Source: an uncultured Alphaproteobacteria bacterium (GTDB lineage: Bacteria > Pseudomonadota > Alphaproteobacteria > Rs-D84). From it: DNA of 64,000 nucleotides. Positions 8,308-20,185 of this stretch are shown one piece after another. Numbering within the stretch: position 1 is the stretch's first letter; each line of letters opens with the position of its first letter. Location of the stretch: the NCBI GenBank assembly GCA_944392815.1, contig CALXXY010000003.1, forward strand, positions 20,096-84,095, written 5' to 3'. A program made the position numbers and the translations under genes. Below the pieces are notes generated by a model, which made no database searches, was not told the DNA's origin, and saw nothing but the letters and a program-made list of their open reading frames with translations.

Positions 8308-10962
8308 ATGGCTAAAAAATTCACACTTTCACCGGCCCAGGATACCGCCGCAAATCCCGCGGAAAACGTATGGGTCCAGGCAAACGCCGGCACAGGAAAA
8401 ACCAGCGTTCTGGTTCAACGACTGTTGCGTATTTTGTTTCGCACCGACCAAATTGATGATTGTGGCATATTATGCCTGACGTATACCAAGGCCGCGGCCG
8501 GCGAAATGCGCAACCGTATTTTGCGCGAATTACAAAATTGGGCCATGGCGTCCGACGATGAATTAATTGAATTATTGGACAACGTGTCCGAACGCAAACC
8601 CGCGACACTGGACGACATCGCCCACGCCCGCATGGTGTTTTTTAAATACATCGATGACCCAGAATTGTTAAAAATCAAAACAATCCACGGTTTTTGCGAA
8701 GAAATCCTGCGCCAATTTCCTATCGAGGCCGGCATATCCCCATCATGGACATTGGTATCAGACGACACACAACGCGTACTATTACAGGACGCATTTTCAC
8801 ACCTGGTCAATTCCACGAATAACGCAACTGTGTCGGACGCATTTTCATATTTGGTGGAACGAATTGATGAAAATCGCATCGGTGATTTAATGACATTGTT
8901 GGGCGAACATTATCGTACATTTTTTCAGATAAACGATATTATTAATTATCGCAAATATTTCATTGATACGATTACAGAATTTTTAAAATTAAACGACCCG
9001 ATTCAGACCGAAATTTCACCCGAAAAACTGCAAAAGATCATCGATTTGGCCACAATCGATATAAATGCATCAAAAAAGCCGGCACAATACTTGATAGACA
9101 TTGTTAATATTACAAAACAATACATTAACAAAACGGCAGATTTTGAAAAATATAAATCTGCGTATTTAACGCAAAGCGGTACACCCATCAAGAATGTTTC
9201 GCGCAAAGATTATCTGACGACCGAACAACAACGCGTATATGACGTAAATCAGTACAATTTATCAAAACAAATCTTTGACGACACAATGGCTATATTCGAA
9301 TTGTCGGCCGAATTTGCAAAAATTTACGGCAAATTAAAATCCGAACGCAATCTGTTGGACTTCGACGATTTGATTTTATACACAAAAAAATTGTTTTCAT
9401 CACCGGACACCATGGGTTGGGTTTTGTCGCAATTAAATGTGCACCTGGCGCACATTCTGGTGGACGAAGCCCAAGACACCAGCCCACTGCAATGGGATAT
9501 TTTACGCATGTTGTCGGGCGATTTCTTTACAGACGGCGACACAAAAAACAACCACCATTCATTATTCGTCGTCGGTGACACAAAACAATCAATATATGGA
9601 TTCCAGGGCGCGGATCCGCGCGCATTCGCCGCCAGTCGCGACGAAATTTCGAACCAAATTCAACAAAATATGCGTACACTGCAAAATATTCCATTGGTGC
9701 AAAGTTTTCGTTCTATGCCGCAAATTTTGTACGCTGTTGACGCATTTTTTAACAACCCAGACGTTCGCGAGCAAACGGGATTTATAAACAATTCGCACAA
9801 ATGGGCAAAAACGGATCCGAACGCATTTGTGGAATTACACAAACTGGTCGATGCGAACACAACGGACACAAACATAAACGAATACCTGGGACAAATCGCG
9901 GACAAAATCCAATCGGTTATAACCGATGACAAATTCAGCCCAAACGACATCATGGTGCTGGTACAAAATCGTGAACCAATGACGCCATTGCTTGTTCGCG
10001 AATTAAAACGTCGAAATATCCCCGTCGCAGGCAGCGACCGCATTATTTTGCCAAAATTTCCGGCTATTCGCGACCTGTTAAACCTGACACGTTTTTGTAT
10101 TAACCCCGACGACGATTTCAGTTTATGTTGTACTTTAAAAAGTCCAATTTTCAGATTGTCCGAACGTGATATTTTTAATATTTGCAAAATTAAAAATGAC
10201 GAAAATAATACGCGCAAAAACGCATGCAGCGATTACAAACCAACCACTGTTTTTGATGTTTTGTTAAACACCCACCCGGACATTCATGCCCAATTGTCAA
10301 AAATGATAAATTGGTCAGCAACAGTGGCCCCATATTCATTTTACACGAACGTATTGGACACAAACAATATTCGCAGCAGCATGATTGCAGCGCTGGGGAA
10401 CCAGATTGTTGACCCATTGGAAGAATTCCTGACCATATGCCTGGCATATGAACGCACACAATGCGGGACACTGCGGCACTTTTTAAAATGGTTCATCACC
10501 GGCGGCAGCACCATCAAACGCGATATGGACACGGCCCCCGGCGTACGCATAGTGACAGTCCACAGCAGCAAGGGCCTAGAGGCCCCCGTAATATTCCTAA
10601 TCGACACAGTACGCACACCTAAACAGGAACATGTTTTTCCAATAGCCCCGGAAATGCAGTCCGCCACATTACGCGCCCGTGGCGCAAATTTACCATCACC
10701 ATGGCTATGGTCACCACGAGCAAACAATTCCACCGCCCGCGATCGCGCAGTCGCGTCCACATCAAAAACAAAAATCGCCGAATACTATCGGTTATTGTAC
10801 GTCGCCATGACGCGCGCGATAAAACGATTGTACATATATGGATTTGCACCAAAAACCAAACCTGCCGCAGAATTGTCATGGCACACCCAACTGTGGCGCG
10901 TATTGTCCACAAACGAAAAATCAACCGTCACCGACGAAATCATCAGGATAAACGATGTCTGA
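8308..10962 (+). CDS. addA: Double-strand break repair helicase AddA, helicase portion (UvrD/Rep superfamily 1)
   Basis: Walker A ANAGTGKTSVLVQR near the N-terminus, ILCLTYTKAAAGEM, motif II VDEAQDTSPLQW, and C-terminal helicase motifs (VTVHSSKGLEAPVIFL, LLYVAMTRA). Confidence 0.85.
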   Translation: MAKKFTLSPAQDTAANPAENVWVQANAGTGKTSVLVQRLLRILFRTDQIDDCGILCLTYTKAAAGEMRNRILRELQNWAMASDDELIELLDNVSERKPATLDDIAHARMVFFKYIDDPELLKIKTIHGFCEEILRQFPIEAGISPSWTLVSDDTQRVLLQDAFSHLVNSTNNATVSDAFSYLVERIDENRIGDLMTLLGEHYRTFFQINDIINYRKYFIDTITEFLKLNDPIQTEISPEKLQKIIDLATIDINASKKPAQYLIDIVNITKQYINKTADFEKYKSAYLTQSGTPIKNVSRKDYLTTEQQRVYDVNQYNLSKQIFDDTMAIFELSAEFAKIYGKLKSERNLLDFDDLILYTKKLFSSPDTMGWVLSQLNVHLAHILVDEAQDTSPLQWDILRMLSGDFFTDGDTKNNHHSLFVVGDTKQSIYGFQGADPRAFAASRDEISNQIQQNMRTLQNIPLVQSFRSMPQILYAVDAFFNNPDVREQTGFINNSHKWAKTDPNAFVELHKLVDANTTDTNINEYLGQIADKIQSVITDDKFSPNDIMVLVQNREPMTPLLVRELKRRNIPVAGSDRIILPKFPAIRDLLNLTRFCINPDDDFSLCCTLKSPIFRLSERDIFNICKIKNDENNTRKNACSDYKPTTVFDVLLNTHPDIHAQLSKMINWSATVAPYSFYTNVLDTNNIRSSMIAALGNQIVDPLEEFLTICLAYERTQCGTLRHFLKWFITGGSTIKRDMDTAPGVRIVTVHSSKGLEAPVIFLIDTVRTPKQEHVFPIAPEMQSATLRARGANLPSPWLWSPRANNSTARDRAVASTSKTKIAEYYRLLYVAMTRAIKRLYIYGFAPKTKPAAELSWHTQLWRVLSTNEKSTVTDEIIRINDV

Positions 10963-11404
10963 CACAAAACTGCGCGATATCATATCGCAAATGAAACACA
11001 CAAAAATCGCAACCGACACAGGTAAAAAAATGCACACGAAAATGCAGGGCATCATCATTTCCGACACCGCCCCACACGGCGACGCTGAAATACGCGCAAA
11101 AATCGCACAACGCCCTGAATTGACGCATTTTTTTGCGACAAATTCTAAAACTGAGGTTCCCATCGCAGGTCACATAAACGGCAAATTCATCAGTCGCCGC
11201 ATCGACAGATTAATCATCGACGACACAAACAAAACAATAGACATTCTGGATTACAAAACAGACACGAACAAGACCGCATTTATTGATAAATACACCGCAC
11301 AAATCAACGAATACGCCACGTTATTGCGCGACATATATCCGAATTACACAATTCGCGGCTATATTTTATGGCTGCATGATTTTGAATTGACCAAAATCAT
11401 ATAA
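10955..11404 (+). CDS. addA: AddA C-terminal PD-(D/E)XK nuclease domain, encoded as a separate ORF overlapping the helicase ORF by 8 nt
   Basis: RecB-family nuclease signature GHINGKFISRRIDRLIIDD ... ILDYKTD (D..D/EYK). Begins ATGTCTGA, overlapping the upstream stop TGA, in a different frame. Confidence 0.65.
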   Translation: MSDTKLRDIISQMKHTKIATDTGKKMHTKMQGIIISDTAPHGDAEIRAKIAQRPELTHFFATNSKTEVPIAGHINGKFISRRIDRLIIDDTNKTIDILDYKTDTNKTAFIDKYTAQINEYATLLRDIYPNYTIRGYILWLHDFELTKII

Positions 11405-11409
11405 AAACC

Positions 11410-13098
11410 TTGAAAAACATCACACAGTACGACTATAATTCAGGCATGTTAACACGGCTGTATATATCTAATATAGTTTTAATAGAAAAACTGAACCTGG
11501 AATTCGGTGCGGGATTAAACATTTTGACCGGCGAAACAGGGGCGGGCAAAAGTATTCTGTTGGACGCCCTGGCACTGGCGCTGGGCGCGCGTTCCGACAC
11601 GGGCCTGGTGCGTCACGGTTGCGACAGCGCAAATGTAATCGCAGAATTCGACACCATTCCCACCACACTGAAAAATATATTGGACGAAAACGGCATTGAA
11701 TTTGACGACGCATTAATATTGCGCCGTACATTGACATCAGACGGCAAATCACGCGCATGGGTAAACGATATTCCTGTATCGATAAAAACGCTGAAACAAA
11801 TCGGTGACGAATTGGTGGAAATTCACGGTCAATTTGCAAACCATACACTGCTGAACCCGACAACGCACCGCAATTCATTGGATATATTCGGGACAAAAAA
11901 CAACCCTGAATACAACGCGTTATTGGAAACAGTTCGCGCAAATTATAACGAATATCACACCGCGCAAAATAAATTGACCGAACTGCAACAAATGTTGGAA
12001 AAATCGGCCACAGAACGTGAATTTTTGGAACACAATGTCCGCGAATTGGAATCTTTGAACGTTCAACCGGGCGAAGAAAACGAATTGGCCACCAAACGCG
12101 CCACCATGATGAACGCGGAAAAAGACGCGGCAATTTTATCCGACGCCATTGCGGCATTAAACCCACACGGACAATCGCTGTCCGAACACATTTTTGCAGC
12201 CGCGAACACATTATTGCATATAAAAACAGACCCAAATCCATACGCTGAACAAATCGACAATTTATACGGCGTGGCCAACGCATTATCTGAAATAGAAGAA
12301 AAATTGGCACCCAACGAAATAGACACAGCCGACCTGGATTCAATCGAAGAACGTCTGTTTGCCATTCGTGCCGCCGCCCGCAAATATCGCGTTTCGGCCG
12401 ACGAACTGCCGCAAACACTGACAAAAATGGCCGCGGAATTAAACACGATTGAAAATTCAGACGCAGAATTAAAAAAATTAACTTCCTGCGTCACCCAGAA
12501 AAAAACCGAATTTGATAAATCGGCCACAAAATTAACCGTCGCCCGCACAGCGGCCGCCGAACAATTGCGCGCACAAATATTGGCCGAATTGCCGGATTTA
12601 AAACTGGGCACCGCGGATTTCATGGTGGAAATCACGCCATGCGCGCCATCTGCAAACGGGATTGATAATATCACGTTTATGATAAAAACGAACCCGGGCA
12701 TGCCATTTGCGCCATTGCACCGTGCGGCGTCTGGTGGCGAATTGGCACGCCTAATGTTGGCATTGCGCGTGGTGCTGGCGGATACAAACACTGCGCACAC
12801 ATTCATATTCGACGAAATCGACACAGGCATCAGCGGCGCCACGGCGTCCGCCGTGGGCAACCGGTTAAATCGCCTGGCTGCCACGTCCCAGGCGTTGGTA
12901 ATCACCCATTCGGCCCAGGTTGCCGGCTATGCCGACAAACATTTCAAAATTGCGAAATCTGTGGAAAATGATGTCACAAAAACAACAGTGACCGAAATCA
13001 TCGGTGACGCGCGCATAAATGAAATCGCCCGCATAATCAGTGGCGCCGAAATCACCCCAGAATCACTGGCCACCGCAAAAACATTGATAAAAAATTAA
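11410..13098 (+). CDS. recN: DNA repair protein RecN
   Basis: N-terminal Walker A LTGETGAGKSILLDAL, long coiled-coil middle, C-terminal signature/Walker B (FIFDEIDTGISG). The true start may be the internal MLTRLYISN around 11446. Confidence 0.9.
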   Translation: MKNITQYDYNSGMLTRLYISNIVLIEKLNLEFGAGLNILTGETGAGKSILLDALALALGARSDTGLVRHGCDSANVIAEFDTIPTTLKNILDENGIEFDDALILRRTLTSDGKSRAWVNDIPVSIKTLKQIGDELVEIHGQFANHTLLNPTTHRNSLDIFGTKNNPEYNALLETVRANYNEYHTAQNKLTELQQMLEKSATEREFLEHNVRELESLNVQPGEENELATKRATMMNAEKDAAILSDAIAALNPHGQSLSEHIFAAANTLLHIKTDPNPYAEQIDNLYGVANALSEIEEKLAPNEIDTADLDSIEERLFAIRAAARKYRVSADELPQTLTKMAAELNTIENSDAELKKLTSCVTQKKTEFDKSATKLTVARTAAAEQLRAQILAELPDLKLGTADFMVEITPCAPSANGIDNITFMIKTNPGMPFAPLHRAASGGELARLMLALRVVLADTNTAHTFIFDEIDTGISGATASAVGNRLNRLAATSQALVITHSAQVAGYADKHFKIAKSVENDVTKTTVTEIIGDARINEIARIISGAEITPESLATAKTLIKN

Positions 13099-14330
13099 AC
13101 TTTCACAACGCCATCGGCGAATTCAATCGACGCAGGACGTGCACCGTCCGCCCGACTGATTATTTGATTTTTTTCATCACGCACAATTGCATATCCGCGC
13201 GATAAAACGCTTTTATAACTTAACGAATTCAACATTTGCCCTAAATGATTCAATCCCTGGGTCATGACCATCATTTTATTTTGCAATATGTTCGGAAACG
13301 CAGCCACGGCGTCCATACGCCCACGCGCAGCAACAATTTTCCCGTTAATTATCACATTCAAAGTACGCGAAATATCGTCCAAACGCTGTTGCTGTTCCAT
13401 CACCAATTGTTTTGGATTTTTTACAACAATGGATTCCACGCGCGCCCGGGCATTGGTCAAACGCGTAGTAAAATTATTCGACAACCTGTGCCACAAATTA
13501 TCCAATTCCTGAATCAACGACAACTTGGTCGGCACAACCATTTCGGCCGCCCCAGTCGGCGTCGGCGCGCGCACATCGGCCGCATAGTCAATCAGCATCC
13601 AATCCGGTTCGTGTCCGACACCGGAAATCAACGGAATTTCACTGGCCGCAGCGGCACGAACAACAATCTCTTCGGAAAAAGGCAACAAATCTTCCAACGC
13701 ACCGCCACCACGTGCAACAATAATCACATCAACATTTTTTGCACGATTAAAATATTCGATACCGGCGGCAACCTCGGCCGCGGCAGTTGTGCCCTGAACA
13801 GTCGCAGGATACAACACAACCGTCACCGGAAAACGTTCACGCAATCTGTTTTGAATATCCTGAAACGCGGCACCGGTCGGACTTGTCACCACGCCAATTC
13901 GCTGAGGCAGTCGGGGCAGCGGCTTTTTACGTGCCTGGTCAAACAGTCCCTCGGCGGCCAGTTTACGTTTGCGTTCCTCCAACATTTTCAGGATTGCGCC
14001 CACACCCGCCATTTCTATTTCAGACACAATAATTTGATAATTGCTGCGCGCGGGATACGTTGTAAAACGCCCGGTAATAATAACCTCCAACCCGTCTTCT
14101 AATTTAAACGGAACGGGCGTACCGCGCCAAATAATCACAGATATGGCCGCCCCAGCATCCTTTATCGTCATATACATATGCCCGGACGTGGCGCGCGTAA
14201 TCTGCGACAATTCACCACGCACACGAATGCGCGGGAACGCCGTTTCCACGACGTTTTTCAATAACGCAGACGCATCAGTCACGCTAAACACTGTATCCGG
14301 CTGGACAAAAGGTTGTGGTTTTTCCAACAT
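13095..14330 (-). CDS. xseA: Exodeoxyribonuclease VII large subunit
   Basis: N-terminal OB fold (VRGELSQITRATSGHMYMTIKD) and an XseA-type catalytic core. Overlaps recN convergently by 4 nt. Confidence 0.9.
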   Translation of the reverse strand: MLEKPQPFVQPDTVFSVTDASALLKNVVETAFPRIRVRGELSQITRATSGHMYMTIKDAGAAISVIIWRGTPVPFKLEDGLEVIITGRFTTYPARSNYQIIVSEIEMAGVGAILKMLEERKRKLAAEGLFDQARKKPLPRLPQRIGVVTSPTGAAFQDIQNRLRERFPVTVVLYPATVQGTTAAAEVAAGIEYFNRAKNVDVIIVARGGGALEDLLPFSEEIVVRAAAASEIPLISGVGHEPDWMLIDYAADVRAPTPTGAAEMVVPTKLSLIQELDNLWHRLSNNFTTRLTNARARVESIVVKNPKQLVMEQQQRLDDISRTLNVIINGKIVAARGRMDAVAAFPNILQNKMMVMTQGLNHLGQMLNSLSYKSVLSRGYAIVRDEKNQIISRADGARPASIEFADGVVKV

Positions 14331-14332
14331 AA

Positions 14333-14824
14333 TTAACGCCTATCAAGTTCTTTTTTAATTTCCGCAATAAATTTTTCTTTATTGGGTGTTTTCATATCAC
14401 CCATACGGCGATTAATCGGCGTTCCCAATTCATACGGCACGCGCAGCGGCGCAAACTGATCCCCGGTGGTATCAAACGGAATATCCAATTCACGATTGTG
14501 CAAAAACACCACAGGCGCATGTTCCCACGCCCCCAACTTTATCGCAGACGGTTGCCACACGGTATCCCCACCATACAAATTATAAATGCAAATCGTGGAC
14601 AGGGCACAAAAACCCTTGGGATACGGGACGAACCCCATAAACGGCATATTGCCAACATATTTTTTGCGAAACGCTGCGTCTTTGAATTTATTGCGCAACA
14701 CGTACGAAATATCATACAATGTATATTCAGCGTCGAATTTATCCAGCATTACGCTGTCAATTCGCTGTGCTGTTTCCAAAACTTTGCGGGTTGCCGCATC
14801 ATATTTTTCCAAATAATCATTCAT
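14333..14824 (-). CDS. Hypothetical protein with a GFC...W.H...N motif; paralog of the next gene
   Basis: Intact ORF. Shares GFCxxS, VW, WxHxxxL.N, DQF and PY(E/D) blocks with the ORF at 14864-15412. Confidence 0.5.
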   Translation of the reverse strand: MNDYLEKYDAATRKVLETAQRIDSVMLDKFDAEYTLYDISYVLRNKFKDAAFRKKYVGNMPFMGFVPYPKGFCALSTICIYNLYGGDTVWQPSAIKLGAWEHAPVVFLHNRELDIPFDTTGDQFAPLRVPYELGTPINRRMGDMKTPNKEKFIAEIKKELDRR

Positions 14825-14863
14825 AATGCGTTAATTATAGCACATCTGGCATTAAAAACAAGT

Positions 14864-15412
14864 TTATCTGCTGCCGCGTCCCAACGCCCGCAACGAATTA
14901 ACAAAAACCACATAGCCCAAATCAATACCCAACCGTCGCGCAAAAGTATACGCACGTTTAAATTCGAAATCGCTGCTGTTATAATCGCCCACTTTGTCAT
15001 ACGGAATTTTTAAATATTCCCCATCATCACCCACAAATTGGTCAAAGGTCAAATCCAGTGGTTCGCCCGTAAATTTATTTTCCAACCACACATGATCCCA
15101 CTTGTCCCCGACTATCAGTTTTAATCGCCAAACTTCGTCCCCATCTGGCATACGAAATAAATGATTCCACGTATAACTGGCAATACCACAAAAACCAGCA
15201 GAATACGCCCCATGCGCAACACGGGCCTGTTCATATTTTTGTTGTAAAACCCGCCTGCGCAAACGCGTGTCACAAAACGCCCTGCGGAAATCGCGCACCA
15301 TACACGACATATCATATTTCGGATTAAAATCGGACGGCAAATTTAACCATTGTGATTGTACCTGGTGCACCAATGATTCAGTGGCCTCATTATACCGCAT
15401 CATATCAACCAT
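14864..15412 (-). CDS. Hypothetical protein; paralog of the 14333-14824 product (Cys/His motif)
   Basis: Aligns block by block with the neighbouring ORF (GFCGIAS, WDHVWLEN, FDQF, IPYD). Confidence 0.5.
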   Translation of the reverse strand: MVDMMRYNEATESLVHQVQSQWLNLPSDFNPKYDMSCMVRDFRRAFCDTRLRRRVLQQKYEQARVAHGAYSAGFCGIASYTWNHLFRMPDGDEVWRLKLIVGDKWDHVWLENKFTGEPLDLTFDQFVGDDGEYLKIPYDKVGDYNSSDFEFKRAYTFARRLGIDLGYVVFVNSLRALGRGSR

Positions 15413-15413
15413 A

Positions 15414-16544
15414 TTATAACTCCGTCAACGGCCAACGGGGGCGGGGCGCCACAGGCGACGTGACAACGCGTCCCAACCTGTAATTTTCCAACCCGGCCCA
15501 CGCAATCATGGCACCATTATCCGTGCACAAATTCATCGGTGGCGCAGCAAACACCACACCATGCGCCGCCGCCAAACGTTCCATCGCACTGCGCACAGCA
15601 CTGTTTTTCGCAACACCGCCCGCCACCACCAAAGTTTTTGGCGCGGCCGCAATCACCCGCGAATCAGCATACGCGTTTTCCAACCGATTAATAATGCAAT
15701 CAACCACAGCCGCCTGGAACGACGCACAAAAATCGTTTATATATTCATCACTGTACGGCGGTGTTTGCCGCGACAAAAACGTACGCGCAGCCGTTTTAAT
15801 TCCACTGAACGAAAAATCACACCCAGGCCGGTCGCACAACGGACGCGGGAAATGAAACGCACGCGGATTCCCGGCCGCAGCACGTTTATCAACAACCGGC
15901 CCACCGGGATACCCCAATCCCAACATTTTTGCAACTTTATCAAATGCCTCGCCAGCACTGTCGTCCAGCGTTTGACCAATCATTTCATACTGGCCAACAC
16001 CGCGCACCAATAAAATCTGGCAATGCCCGCCCGACGCCAGCATCAACAAATACGGAAAATCAACATTGGTCGCGCCGTCCGCACCATTTGCCGCCGCTGC
16101 ATGTAAACGCGGAACCAGGGCGTGACCCTCCAGATGATTAACGGCAACCAACGGTTTGCCTGTTGATTGCGCAATACCTGTTGCGGCCAACCAACCAACC
16201 AACACGCCACCTATTAACCCAGGCCCGGCCGTCGCAGCAACAACATCGATATCATCAATCGATTTGCCAGCCGCGTCCAAAGTTCTGTGAATAACGTCAT
16301 CAATCGCCAAAATATGCGCACGCGCCGCCAATTCAGGCACCACCCCGCCATACTTTTGGTGTTCAGGAATTTGCGAATAAATAATATGTGCCAAAATATT
16401 ACGGTCAGAATCCACCACAGCCGCCGACGTTTCATCACACGATGATTCTATGCCCAAACACAATGTCGCGCGTGGCGTGGCACCATCATGCTCGTCACCA
16501 TGCAAAGTGCCCATATCCATCTGAATAATTTTATCCGTATTCAT
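15414..16544 (-). CDS. tsaD: tRNA N6-adenosine threonylcarbamoyltransferase (Kae1/Gcp family)
   Basis: LGIESSCDETSAAVV N-terminal motif and HxxGH metal-binding region (AVNHLEGHAL). Confidence 0.9.
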   Translation of the reverse strand: MNTDKIIQMDMGTLHGDEHDGATPRATLCLGIESSCDETSAAVVDSDRNILAHIIYSQIPEHQKYGGVVPELAARAHILAIDDVIHRTLDAAGKSIDDIDVVAATAGPGLIGGVLVGWLAATGIAQSTGKPLVAVNHLEGHALVPRLHAAAANGADGATNVDFPYLLMLASGGHCQILLVRGVGQYEMIGQTLDDSAGEAFDKVAKMLGLGYPGGPVVDKRAAAGNPRAFHFPRPLCDRPGCDFSFSGIKTAARTFLSRQTPPYSDEYINDFCASFQAAVVDCIINRLENAYADSRVIAAAPKTLVVAGGVAKNSAVRSAMERLAAAHGVVFAAPPMNLCTDNGAMIAWAGLENYRLGRVVTSPVAPRPRWPLTEL

Positions 16545-17227
16545 TTTACTTCCACCAACATAATTCCCAAATTATTTTTATTTTCTGCGCGCGCACGGGC
16601 ATATTGATAAAAATCCACGTCCATCACACGCCCATATTGCGACGACGCATGCCGCAATACACCGCCCGGCAATAAAAATCCCATATGCCGCACGGCTAAA
16701 TCAGTACCTATTTTACCACTTTTTTCAAATTGTCCAGAAATAAATAACACTATCATGGGTTTTGTCACATTTATCCCAGCCACTTGTTCATACGGGATAT
16801 AATTCAAATCAACCGCCACAGGCGCAAAATCTGAATCAATTCCATGCACGGCACGCAACCAACTTTGTTTATCAATCACCACATGACGCACAGACACATC
16901 ACCATATTGTTCTGTCACATCAGTCACCAAATCTGCATTGTTTGCCAACCAATCAGTTTCAATAAAATGATTACGATTTACAAAATCAACAACGCCGCCT
17001 TTGTACCTGATTTTATTTAATTTTTGTACATCACCGCCCGCCAACGACGTTTCCACAAACGTCACACAATCAAACGCATCATCGCGAACAAGTGGATCAG
17101 AATCAGGCGCAACACCTTCGCCCAATGGATCGGCCACATATGCCGCCCCCAAATATTCACGCCCAGGGTCATCAATGTCGCACACCGCGCACCCAACCAA
17201 CGCGAATAAAAACATCAGCCATTTCAT
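16541..17227 (-). CDS. Secreted DUF1460-like (amidase-like) protein
   Basis: Signal peptide MKWLMFLFALVGCAVC. FDCVTFVETSLA resembles the DUF1460 catalytic Cys block. 4-nt overlap with tsaD. Confidence 0.4.
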   Translation of the reverse strand: MKWLMFLFALVGCAVCDIDDPGREYLGAAYVADPLGEGVAPDSDPLVRDDAFDCVTFVETSLAGGDVQKLNKIRYKGGVVDFVNRNHFIETDWLANNADLVTDVTEQYGDVSVRHVVIDKQSWLRAVHGIDSDFAPVAVDLNYIPYEQVAGINVTKPMIVLFISGQFEKSGKIGTDLAVRHMGFLLPGGVLRHASSQYGRVMDVDFYQYARARAENKNNLGIMLVEVK

Positions 17228-17229
17228 GA

Positions 17230-17535
17230 TTAATTATTTTGATTCACCAAAATCCCAGTATTGCACAACGACACAGCGTCCCGCACAGCCATCTCGCCAC
17301 TTCCCGGCAGGGTTGCAACCTTGTCCACACATTGAACCAATAATTCCAAATTATCTGTACTGGCAATAATAATCTGGGCGGCGGTTGTGCGTCGCGCCAC
17401 ATCAGCGGCACGCCATTGCCGCAAATTTCCATTTTCCAAATCACTGGATTTCATGGCAAAGAAAAACACCACAACCACAAAAATCAAAACAGCAATTCCG
17501 ATAACAATTTTTAAAATTTTTTTAAACGAATTCAT
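17230..17535 (-). CDS. Small single-pass membrane protein (unknown)
   Basis: Likely start MNSFKKILKIVIGIAVLIFVVVVFFFA. One TM helix. Confidence 0.35.
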   Translation of the reverse strand: MNSFKKILKIVIGIAVLIFVVVVFFFAMKSSDLENGNLRQWRAADVARRTTAAQIIIASTDNLELLVQCVDKVATLPGSGEMAVRDAVSLCNTGILVNQNN

Positions 17536-17553
17536 ATGCGCCACCACAATCTG

Positions 17554-17907
17554 CTATTCACAACGGACCAACCACAAATCATAATCCGCATTTTGCACAG
17601 GATTATCACCGGGTTCATTCGCGCTGGTCCAACCGCTGTAAATTTTCCCCTCGTCCGATTTGTTAATTTCGATAAACATGTAAAAATCCTGGGCATCAAA
17701 AGGATCCGTTTGCTTGCACGAACGCACCACCATGTCCAATTTTTCAAACTGCGTCGGCACGCCAACGGGCAGGGCAACCGTCTGCACTTTACCGGCGGCC
17801 TTGTTCATAATGCGCACAACGGCGGTTTGTCTGTCAACATATGCGTCCGCCGGACGCGCCGCCCCAAACACAGCCAAAATCAAACCAAACAAAAATAATT
17901 TTTTCAT
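17554..17907 (-). CDS. Periplasmic DUF2155-like protein
   Basis: Start at MKKLFLFGLILAVFGAARPADA (signal peptide). Small conserved alphaproteobacterial periplasmic protein. Confidence 0.5.
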   Translation of the reverse strand: MKKLFLFGLILAVFGAARPADAYVDRQTAVVRIMNKAAGKVQTVALPVGVPTQFEKLDMVVRSCKQTDPFDAQDFYMFIEINKSDEGKIYSGWTSANEPGDNPVQNADYDLWLVRCE

Positions 17908-18020
17908 AACAAATATTTTACAGACACACGCCCCCAAAGTCAAATCGTTAATCGCCCAGCGCCCCAAAACAAAAATCCCGCACACAGCGGGATTTTTGTT
18001 TACAATAATTTCGCACAAAA

Positions 18021-18422
18021 TTATTTGTCTTCTGCTTTGGCCGCTTTTTCAGCAGACGCCGCGGACAAATCTTCGACAATACGTGCCTTTTTACCGGACA
18101 ATCCACGCAAAAAGAACAATTTTGCACGACGAACTTTACCTGTGCGAACCTTTTCAATTTTTTCAATCGCAGGGCTGTACAGCGGGAATTTACGTTCCAC
18201 ACCAACACCATACGATTCACGGCGCACTGTAAAGGACGCATTATTCCCGGCACCACCATCGCGCGCGATTACGACACCTTCGAAAACCTGGATACGGAAT
18301 TTATCGCCATCTTTGATTTTCACGTGTACTTTTACTGTATCACCGGCCTTGAAATCCGGGATTTTTTTATCGCCACGCAGTTTTTCAATTTGTGCCTGTT
18401 CAATTTTTTTAATAATGCTCAT
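18021..18422 (-). CDS. rplS: 50S ribosomal protein L19
   Basis: Typical L19 sequence ([19 protein letters not shown]...[10 protein letters not shown]). Confidence 0.95.
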
Positions 18423-19105
18423 TTTTCATTTTCCTTTATTAAATCCGGACGACGTGATTTTGTTATTTCGTCCGATTGTTGTTTCCGCCATCTTTCTATA
18501 TTGCCGTGATGGCCAGACAGCAGGACTTCTGGGACATTACGTCCACGCCATGCCGACGGGCGGGTATATAACGGCCATTCCAACCCCCCGATTTCAAAAC
18601 TTTCATTGCGTGTGGCCTCGGCGCCACCGCCCAGGACATTATCCATCACACGAACCACGCTGTCAATAAAAACTTGCGCGGCAATTTCGCCACCCGACAG
18701 TATATAATCGCCAATGGACAATTCCATTATGTTATACTCGTCTATGACCCGTTGATCAATGCCTTCGTATCGGCCACACAACAGGGTATAATTCGCATCA
18801 CGTACCGCGGCAAATTCGCGCACCATTTTTTGCGTCAATTGCGGTCCACGCGGCGAAAAGTATATGATTTTACCGCGATTTTTAATCGAATCAATTGCGT
18901 CACCCAAAACATCTGCACGCATAACCTGGCCAACGCCACCGCCGAATTGTTCGTCATCGACACTGCCATAGTTGTCATGTGCAAAATCGCGAATGTTTAT
19001 GGCATCATACGACCAAACCCCATTGGACAGCGCACGCCCAACAACCCCGCCACCCACAGTGCCGGGAAACATTTCCGGAAAAATGGTCAGTATATTGAAA
19101 TGCAT
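18419..19105 (-). CDS. trmD: tRNA (guanine37-N1)-methyltransferase
   Basis: [14 protein letters not shown]-terminus, SPOUT fold motifs (GGGAGMV-like, [13 protein letters not shown]). Confidence 0.9.
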
Positions 19106-19107
19106 GT

Positions 19108-19380
19108 TTAACGCTGTTTGCCCCCACAGTTTTTACACAAATAATCCGCCAACTTTATCACGATATCGGTCATATGTTCGTCGGGCAACGCCGCCGAACG
19201 AATAACCTTGATACGACCTGGAACCTCGCGCAATACAGAATGTTCCAATTCCAGCCCGTCCAGATATTTCAACACATGGCACGACGCCATATCAGCGTCA
19301 CATCTGTTGAAAACACTTTTACGCCCCATTGAATCAAAACGAAAGACAACCTGTATAGATTTTTTATTAATATTCGGCAT
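19108..19380 (-). CDS. Small hypothetical protein inserted between rimM and trmD
   Basis: Start MPNINKK preceded by AGGTGGA RBS. About 90 aa with no recognisable family. Confidence 0.4.
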   Translation of the reverse strand: MPNINKKSIQVVFRFDSMGRKSVFNRCDADMASCHVLKYLDGLELEHSVLREVPGRIKVIRSAALPDEHMTDIVIKLADYLCKNCGGKQR

Positions 19381-19414
19381 TAACTTTCCACCTTTGTATA
19401 TTGATATAACAAAA

Positions 19415-19708
19415 TTATTTTGATTTTTGCCACACACGTTTATAAACATGCACCAAACCGCCATCAAAATAAAATTTACCGTCCATAAACAAACGCTGAC
19501 CATTGCAATCCGGCAAATTACCATACTGATTTACAATATACGGACATTTTGCCCCAGACGGAATAATTCTGTATCCATCATCAGTGTATTTATAATTGGC
19601 AAATACAGGACACACATGCACACACGGACAACGCCCAGCACGAATAACCCCACGTGGCACATAAACACGGTCTTTGACATCTTCTAAGACAAATGGTTTT
19701 GGCATCAT
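19415..19708 (-). CDS. Small Cys-rich hypothetical protein (7 Cys)
   Basis: 97-aa ORF (RCPCVHVCPV ... KCPY ... DCNGQ) directly downstream of rimM. Confidence 0.4.
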   Translation of the reverse strand: MMPKPFVLEDVKDRVYVPRGVIRAGRCPCVHVCPVFANYKYTDDGYRIIPSGAKCPYIVNQYGNLPDCNGQRLFMDGKFYFDGGLVHVYKRVWQKSK

Positions 19709-19720
19709 ATTGTTTTCACC

Positions 19721-20185
19721 CTATAATTTTACAATTTTATTATCAAAATCCACATTTGCACCAACAAACGAAACAAAATCGCCGTTATCCAGTTCGATAA
19801 TATCGCCGGCCCCAAAATTTTGAAATCCGGCAATGCGCCCGATTTCCACACCATAGCGCAGCACACGCATACCAATTAAATCGGCCTGATAATATTCCCC
19901 AGCACCCGGCGCCGGCAAATCATCACGATTGATAAACAATTCAACACCACGCAACATTTCAGCCGCATTGCGGTCATTCACACCATCAATCCGGGCGATA
20001 ATAACAGACGACGACGGCACCACGCGCACGAAATGAAACGCCCCATCTGGAACATGCGTCCCATGCACCCGCAAATCTTTCATATCAACGGGTGTGGCGG
20101 TATATGTTTGGACACGAACCTCGCCCCGGACGCCCTGGGGTGCGACAATTTTCCCGACCAAGATTTGTTTACCGTTATCGTGCAT
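19721..20185 (-). CDS. rimM: 16S rRNA processing protein RimM
   Basis: KQILVGKIVAPQGVRGEVRVQ N-terminal RimM motif and C-terminal PRC barrel. Start set at MHDNGKQ. Confidence 0.8.
   Translation of the reverse strand: MHDNGKQILVGKIVAPQGVRGEVRVQTYTATPVDMKDLRVHGTHVPDGAFHFVRVVPSSSVIIARIDGVNDRNAAEMLRGVELFINRDDLPAPGAGEYYQADLIGMRVLRYGVEIGRIAGFQNFGAGDIIELDNGDFVSFVGANVDFDNKIVKL

Follow-up and report, generated by a model that had tools for sequence, protein, structure and literature searches.

Proteins of the YunG type fall into named families, PF24585 (YunG), PF24591 ('Phage YunG-like') and phrog_12251, that have no assigned function, and a literature search on YunG, YunG-like, PF24585 and phrog_12251 found no paper on what these proteins do. 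Among thiol enzymes, the papain-like layout places a Cys at the N-terminus of a helix and a His and an Asp on successive strands. Here we describe two adjacent open reading frames, ORF-B and ORF-A, that lie between tsaD and xseA in a 64,000-nucleotide stretch of DNA (the window) from an uncultured alphaproteobacterium of the Rs-D84 lineage (assembly GCA_944392815.1, contig CALXXY010000003.1, positions 20,096 to 84,095). Their products bear distant similarity to the YunG proteins, and the model of ORF-B has a papain-like arrangement of conserved residues. On balance, we favour the view that ORF-B may be a thiol-dependent enzyme of the cytoplasm, a hydrolase or transferase that uses a Cys75/His107/Asp120 triad, and ORF-A its His-less partner.

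The pair was first noticed in a reading of the window that used the letters and their translations, with no database searches (the sequence-only reading), and that described two paralogous proteins with shared Cys/His motifs between xseA and tsaD. Both ORFs are indeed found there on the minus strand, their flanks being identified by TIGR00237 (xseA) and TIGR03723 (tsaD), and all of the quoted motifs are present: KGFCALSTICIYNLYGG / AGFCGIASYTWNHLF, GAWEHAPVVFLHN / KWDHVWLEN, DQF and PYE/PYD. That the two are paralogues is far beyond chance, with 24% identity over 139 aa (BLASTP, E 5e-11) and a profile–profile match between their ortholog alignments at a probability of 98.5% (hhalign, E 1.9e-15). 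There is no third copy within the window, and neither protein contains a hydrophobic segment or a signal peptide.

A candidate Cys–His–Asp triad in ORF-B

We retrieved 102 homologs of ORF-A and 43 of ORF-B, all of them metagenomic and from Alphaproteobacteria metagenome-assembled genomes, with conserved length. A wider superfamily set was assembled with a profile built from A and B in an exhaustive search of 1.84 billion representatives, which gave only 131 relatives at E ≤ 1e-3; a further homolog search that started from the superfamily alignment yielded hardly any additional sequences, as its word index limits what it can reach. Conservation was then counted among 100 superfamily representatives (mean column identity 12%), 41 sequences of family B and 98 of family A. 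In ORF-B numbering, the best-conserved superfamily columns are Cys75 (98 of 100), Thr122 and Tyr138 (95 each), Gln125 (93), Asp120 (92) and His107 (89); all 11 exceptions at the His107 column are Val or Leu. Within family B, Cys75, His107, Asp120, Asp124 and Gln125 are each invariant (41/41). Family A retains Cys73 (97/98) together with Asp118 (97/98), Asp122 (98/98) and Gln123 (96/98), the last three being the counterparts of Asp120, Asp124 and Gln125 in ORF-B.

The His is where the two families part. According to both profile and multiple alignments, the residue of ORF-A that occupies the column of ORF-B His107 is Val105, and not His102, which the sequence-only reading had taken as the catalytic His. 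We rejected His102 for this role: 67 of the 98 orthologs have His there and 31 have Tyr, and the alignments place it outside the column of the family His. The earlier proposal of an invariant Cys, followed by His and then Asn or Asp in the order of a papain- or transglutaminase-like triad, is therefore borne out for the Cys in both families and for the complete order in ORF-B and the superfamily; it fails for ORF-A, where His102 is unconserved and the family His position is occupied by Val.

In the AlphaFold2 model of ORF-B (predicted local distance difference test, pLDDT, 93.3; predicted template modelling score 0.90), N-terminal helices are followed by a helix spanning residues 75–85, which starts exactly at Cys75, and by strands 95–101, 106–112 (carrying His107) and 118–119, immediately after which comes Asp120. 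The model of ORF-A has a pLDDT of 76, with segments 99–102 and 123–144 below 50; it places Cys73 as the first residue of helix 73–83 and Asp118 after a strand. Two features of papain- or transglutaminase-like sites, a Cys at the N-terminus of an α-helix and a third polar residue on the strand after that of the His (D120 in B, D118 in A), are consequently seen in both models, whereas a His on the strand that follows the Cys helix is seen in ORF-B and missing from ORF-A. As modelled, the residue order and topology of ORF-B are papain/transglutaminase-like. Arg43, Arg52 and an Ala-Thr motif are also conserved in the N-terminal helices.

Comparison of the models with structure databases gave no significant match. 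Foldseek searches of PDB and BFVD, the kind of check that the sequence-only reading had proposed, returned nothing at E ≤ 0.001; in the non-significant tails, Tse1/Tae1, MepS, PLpro and phage 'transglutaminase' entries recurred. When the 100-sequence profile was searched against PDB, the top matches were a designed protein and a glucosylceramidase (E > 0.06), and nothing real was found. The A+B profile had matched a TauD-family dioxygenase (3swt_A, E 0.0015, about 100 residues) in PDB, which we judge to be a chance match because the aligned 'F.rGF.GL' stretch has no Cys, the fold class differs and the match was gone with the broader profile. We conclude that there is reasonable support for a resemblance to thiol enzymes at the level of mechanism, but not for placing the proteins in a specific known enzyme family.

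Conserved Cys, His and carboxylate residues might instead bind Zn or Fe, in a structural or catalytic site, which would make the pair small metalloproteins or metal-dependent enzymes. Of the alternatives to a thiol enzyme this one survives best, and we consider it distinctly unlikely. It would account for the invariance in family B, and the high conservation in the superfamily, of four potential ligands (C75, H107, D120 and D124), and for the lack of a significant match to any solved thiol hydrolase. Nevertheless, a single Cys with carboxylates would be an unusual Zn site, and the position of the Cys at a helix N-terminus, with His and Asp on successive strands, is the classic layout of papain-like enzymes. 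Furthermore, the His-less clade keeps the Cys while exchanging the His for a hydrophobic Val or Leu, and the weak fold matches are to thiol enzymes, not metalloproteins.

Relationship to YunG-type proteins

Neither ORF-A nor ORF-B has a match in NCBIfam. The only weak Pfam match of either is to PF24585, at 11.8 bits (E 0.28) for ORF-A and 12.7 bits (E 0.15) for ORF-B; both are sub-threshold, and both cover the same central part of the profile (positions ~31–99 of 116). We believe the link is more than noise because PF24585 is matched at E ≤ 1 by 15 of 28 B orthologs (best 5.8e-4), while every other family is matched once. Among the 100 superfamily relatives, 29 match PF24585 at E ≤ 0.01 (best 4.6e-8), three match PF24591 and 30 match phrog_12251 (best E 5.4e-30). 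As judged from these profile matches, ORF-A and ORF-B are a divergent, lineage-specific branch of a YunG-like superfamily. The initial remark that no established family was recognizable thus holds with respect to the formal threshold, yet the proteins are sub-threshold relatives of the named PF24585 and phrog_12251.

Position and partner of ORF-B in related species

We then scanned related genomes, one per species, with the ORF-B alignment as query, and obtained 29 loci. The closest is that of Candidatus Enterousia excrementavium, where identity is 91% for B and 94–99% for the flanking genes. The lineage is a gut-associated alphaproteobacterial one with small genomes (~1 Mb), as one of the related loci (L021) lies in a circular-chromosome record of 958,618 bp. 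All 29 species loci contain ORF-B, which invariably comes next after tsaD, and superfamily relatives occur in phages as well (see below); this is the survey of distribution for which the sequence-only reading had called. In the other loci the spacing between tsaD and B is at most ~55 nt, or the genes overlap by 4 nt. In the window, 1 nt separates the tsaD stop from the B start, 39 nt separate B from A, and 2 nt separate A from xseA; ORF-B is probably co-transcribed with the upstream tsaD. A promoter and terminator scan found no excess of terminator-like sites between the genes, counts being at the chance level, and beyond this absence of an intergenic terminator the scan is neutral on co-transcription.

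The order trmD-rplS-...-DUF2155-orf105-(AmiA-like)-tsaD-B-slot 2-xseA, with recN in convergent orientation, shows synteny across the 28 loci long enough to cover it, where slot 2 denotes the position between B and xseA that ORF-A occupies in the window. In more distant contigs, the position after tsaD or before xseA is retained. Slot 2 holds a paralog in 22/29 loci: in 11 species it is of the His-less A type, and in 11 it belongs to His-keeping subtypes, marked by 'HWWLQH...FDITYTQF' or 'GPHFYVMH...FDLTFDQY'. Six of the 29 species have, in its place, an opposite-strand gene for an APH-family kinase-like protein of 331–364 aa, and in one species slot 2 is empty. In two separate lineages B is fused to the slot-2 gene at the same locus, giving proteins P0146 (361 aa) and P0151 (315 aa). 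The kinase-like proteins carry an HGDxNEHN...DFAE motif and match the Pfam APH phosphotransferase enzyme family (E 3.6e-6), with a weak match to choline kinase.

The sequence-only reading had regarded the pair as a local duplication. The paralogy is real, and 'local' is misleading: to judge from the sequences, the duplication is ancient, not local or recent, because the paralogs are only 24% identical, at least three slot-2 subtypes exist and fusions have arisen in two lineages, all of this across related species. The coordinates of the pair, of its predicted site residues and of the other genes discussed here are collected in Table 1.

Table 1. Genes and predicted site residues of the tsaD–xseA interval, with related genes elsewhere. 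Positions are those of the window unless another locus or record is named.
Feature	Position	Strand	Description
ORF-B, 182 aa	14864..15412	-	YunG-superfamily protein; Cys75/His107/Asp120 set complete, plus Asp124, Gln125 and Tyr138; putative catalytic subunit
ORF-A, 163 aa	14333..14824	-	Paralog of ORF-B; keeps Cys73, Asp118, Asp122 and Gln123, with Val105 in the His column; putative partner, either non-catalytic or altered
ORF-B Cys75 codon	15188..15190	-	Predicted nucleophile; first residue of helix 75-85
ORF-B His107 codon	15092..15094	-	In strand 106-112; motif HVWLEN
ORF-B Asp120 codon	15053..15055	-	Just past strand 118-119; motif LDLTFDQ
ORF-A Cys73 codon	14606..14608	-	Motif KGFCAL
ORF-A Val105 codon	14510..14512	-	Aligns with the family His; Val in 98/98 orthologs
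ORF-A His102 codon	14519..14521	-	His named in the sequence-only reading; 67 His, 31 Tyr; low-confidence loop of the model
tsaD	15414..16544	-	TIGR03723, E 1.9e-120; directly upstream of ORF-B; context, not a demonstrated functional partner
xseA	13095..14330	-	TIGR00237, E 2.6e-122; directly downstream of ORF-A; context
AmiA-like / DUF1460 gene	16541-17227	-	PF07313, E 3e-26; cysteine-amidase-like family; 4-nt overlap with the tsaD start
105-aa ORF	17230-17547	-	One N-terminal hydrophobic helix; no family match
APH-like slot-2 gene	L007 6553-7587; L008 4044-5138; L010 6532-7527	-	Related species
APH-like slot-2 gene	L012 6262-7269; L018 6535-7533; L023 6452-7459	-	Related species
phiCbK gp296, 224 aa	L034 2902-3576 = NC_019405.1 94026-94700		YunG-like N-terminal domain and C-terminal helix-turn-helix (HTH)/Mor-type DNA-binding domain
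Mx1 1479-aa protein	L035 1-4440 = OR576727.2 24404-28843		Annotated only as 'NUDIX hydrolase'

The constant position of B invites a second alternative, that the pair is non-enzymatic and acts as an adaptor or accessory for TsaD (t6A machinery) or XseA (exonuclease VII), its conserved residues being needed for binding or folding. We regard this as more doubtful still than a metal site. In its favour, every species locus, and more distant contigs too, have B directly behind tsaD; the second gene adjoins xseA; and the genes that remain in genomes of ~1 Mb are likely to be useful. The whole trmD...recN block is, however, syntenic in the lineage, so that adjacency within it is unspecific; phage and YunG-type relatives occur without tsaD or xseA, and a Cys-His-Asp set that persists in a superfamily whose mean column identity is 12% would be more usual for a catalytic role.

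Some features of the neighbouring genes may be recorded here. TsaD of the window is 376 aa long, and its match to the TsaD model starts at residue 30, which leaves an N-terminal extension of ~28 residues (MNTDKIIQMDMGTLHGDEHDGATPRATL...); TsaD of a more distant relative (L047) has 355 aa. The AmiA-like gene is missing from five to six related loci (L022, L024-L027, L029), and every related locus has the 105-aa ORF (51–79% identity) between the AmiA-like gene and DUF2155. Between rplS and DUF2155, a segment of ~1.5 kb is inserted in Ca. Enterousia excrementavium (L001 1905-3402) and in some ten further species; in L001 it codes for a nucleotidyltransferase toxin of the AbiEii family (PF08843, E 1.6e-17) and for a calcineurin-like metallophosphoesterase (PF00149). 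The window lacks the insertion, rplS and DUF2155 being directly adjacent (~18018-18021); the region thus shows a presence/absence polymorphism of what is likely a defence or toxin–antitoxin cassette. GC skew on the plus strand is uniformly and strongly negative (-0.1 to -0.37) over window positions 10000–20000, where the housekeeping genes are all on the minus strand, as would fit genes that are co-oriented with replication on one replichore.

Superfamily relatives in phages

A tblastn search with one superfamily relative, P0197, matched Myxococcus phage Mx1 as well as 26 records from Caulobacter phages (phiCbK, CcrRogue and further Ccr phages), and additional relatives sit in metagenomic phage contigs. 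In phiCbK the relative is gp296, a hypothetical protein whose gene starts at the last base of the DNA polymerase I gene and precedes that of a Pol III-like exonuclease. In Mx1, the YunG-like segment (residues 33–98) is part of a 1479-aa protein that also contains GNAT (156–271), ART-PolyVal (649–896) and NUDIX (923–1033) domains; its gene is preceded by genes for thymidylate synthase and dNMP kinase, and followed by one for a 619-aa PI3/PI4-kinase/HipA-like kinase. Such a multi-enzyme domain architecture defines the phage polyvalent proteins (Iyer et al., 2017; PMC5512222). The YunG-like domain seems to be undescribed in that paper, because the terms YunG, papain, transglutaminase and NlpC are all absent from its text.

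Least probable of all, in our view, is a third alternative, in which the pair descends from a phage conflict module (toxin/immunity or anti-defence) that was domesticated, with ORF-B as effector and ORF-A as an inactive neutralizing paralog: phage relatives exist, one of them at the N-terminus of a polyvalent protein with ART, GNAT and NUDIX domains, and slot 2 is evolutionarily variable, with the APH-like kinase gene there instead in six species, but B is fixed at one position of a housekeeping operon in 29/29 species with reduced genomes and without mobile-element hallmarks, persists partnerless in seven species (difficult to explain for a toxin dependent on an antidote) and in its fused forms is joined to a second complete triad, and no PADLOC-DB model was matched (E ≤ 0.1) by A, B, P0197, phiCbK gp296 or the fusion P0146.

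Discussion

We propose that ORF-B and ORF-A may form a lineage-conserved, co-transcribed cytoplasmic pair in which ORF-B would be the catalytic member. Cys75, at the N-terminus of its helix in the model, would act as the nucleophile; His107 on the following β-strand would serve as general base, and Asp120, one strand further on, would orient the His. By this mechanism ORF-B could cleave or transfer an amide or thioester-type bond, in the manner of a peptidase, a deamidase or an acyl-transferase. ORF-A, in which the His would have been lost (Val105) and the Cys and Asp/Gln motif kept, might be a non-catalytic or chemically altered partner in a heterodimer with ORF-B; we infer such a role because the tandem arrangement is stable and two gene fusions arose independently. 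The conserved arginines of the N-terminal helices suggest an anionic target. From these arginines, taken together with phage relatives that lie in replication or nucleotide modules, are fused to an HTH domain or form part of a polyvalent effector, it may be speculated that the substrate is associated with nucleic acid, or is a protein of the replication or translation apparatus.

Several observations weigh against this proposal. The second paralog is missing in 7/29 species (six with the APH-like gene and one with B alone), which means that the partner is dispensable. The heterodimer, although the most likely arrangement as far as the sequences go, is putative, and a purely 'dead' partner role leaves the invariant Cys of ORF-A unexplained. 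The Cys/His/Asp/Asp cluster could equally be a metal site. Both proteins miss the PF24585 gathering cut-off of 27 bits and are not formal YunG members. Pfam transglutaminase and peptidase models gave no match at E ≤ 1 to the window proteins or to 28 B orthologs, and hhalign against the core segments of two transglutaminase-like structures, 6g49 and 3isr, aligned the GFC motif alone, with a probability below 1%, the template being a thin one of two sequences.

A bolder version of the thiol-enzyme proposal is possible, and we offer it tentatively as an unlikely one. The YunG-like superfamily might constitute an unrecognized class of Cys-His-Asp enzymes without a close solved fold relative, represented in reduced-genome gut Alphaproteobacteria by an obligate heterodimer of a catalytic and a His-less subunit that is translationally coupled to TsaD and modifies a component of translation or DNA maintenance, and deployed by phages in replication modules and in injected polyvalent effectors.

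If the thiol-enzyme reading of ORF-B is true, Cys75/His107/Asp120 would provide the first mechanistic handle on the functionally blank YunG, Phage_YunG-like and phrog_12251 superfamily, which spans Bacillus-type YunG proteins, jumbo Caulobacter phages, a phage polyvalent effector and a gene that all sampled species of an alphaproteobacterial gut lineage with ~1-Mb genomes have at a fixed position. The complete-triad protein, the His-less paralog, the two independent fusions and the partnerless species offer a natural series for comparison. We see this as a modest lead for enzyme discovery, which would not surprise a specialist and has no bearing on a long-standing open question.

Comparison with known systems

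ORF-A and ORF-B share with PF24585, PF24591 and phrog_12251 proteins a core made up of a G-F-C helix, an H-x-[WFY]-L strand and a D-x-T-x-D-Q-[FY] segment followed by P-Y. They differ from the YunG-type proteins in an extra N-terminal helical region of ~35–65 residues with invariant Ala-Thr and Arg positions, which is absent from the ~130-aa phage and YunG-type forms, whose matches begin at profile position 33. Unlike the YunG-type proteins, they are encoded as a fixed tandem or fused pair beside tsaD, in which one paralog is His-less. With respect to polyvalent proteins, it is the Mx1 protein, with GNAT, ART-PolyVal and NUDIX domains behind a YunG-like N-terminus, that has the defining architecture; the window genes, by contrast, are chromosomal and single-domain, and lie in a housekeeping operon.

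Among enzymes of known fold, the transglutaminase-like group (PF01841 core; TgpA of P. aeruginosa, 6g49; the putative protease 3isr; PNGase, 2f4m) is alike in residue order and in local motifs. In the transglutaminase core, the helix opens with 'sGFC...', the strand behind it carries 'dH.W.E' and the strand after that 'xD.T', as can be seen when RSGFCAHYA...DAHAWVEYW...LSVDPT of 6g49 is set beside SAGFCGIAS...DHVWLENKF...LDLTFDQ of ORF-B. The spacings are comparable, with 32 residues from Cys to His in ORF-B against ~33–45 in two PDB examples, and 13 from His to Asp against ~16. Papain-fold effectors of the glutamine deamidase type, such as the catalytic domain of Salmonella SseI (4g29) and the Flavobacterium protein glutaminase (8z3i), are also among the closest systems.

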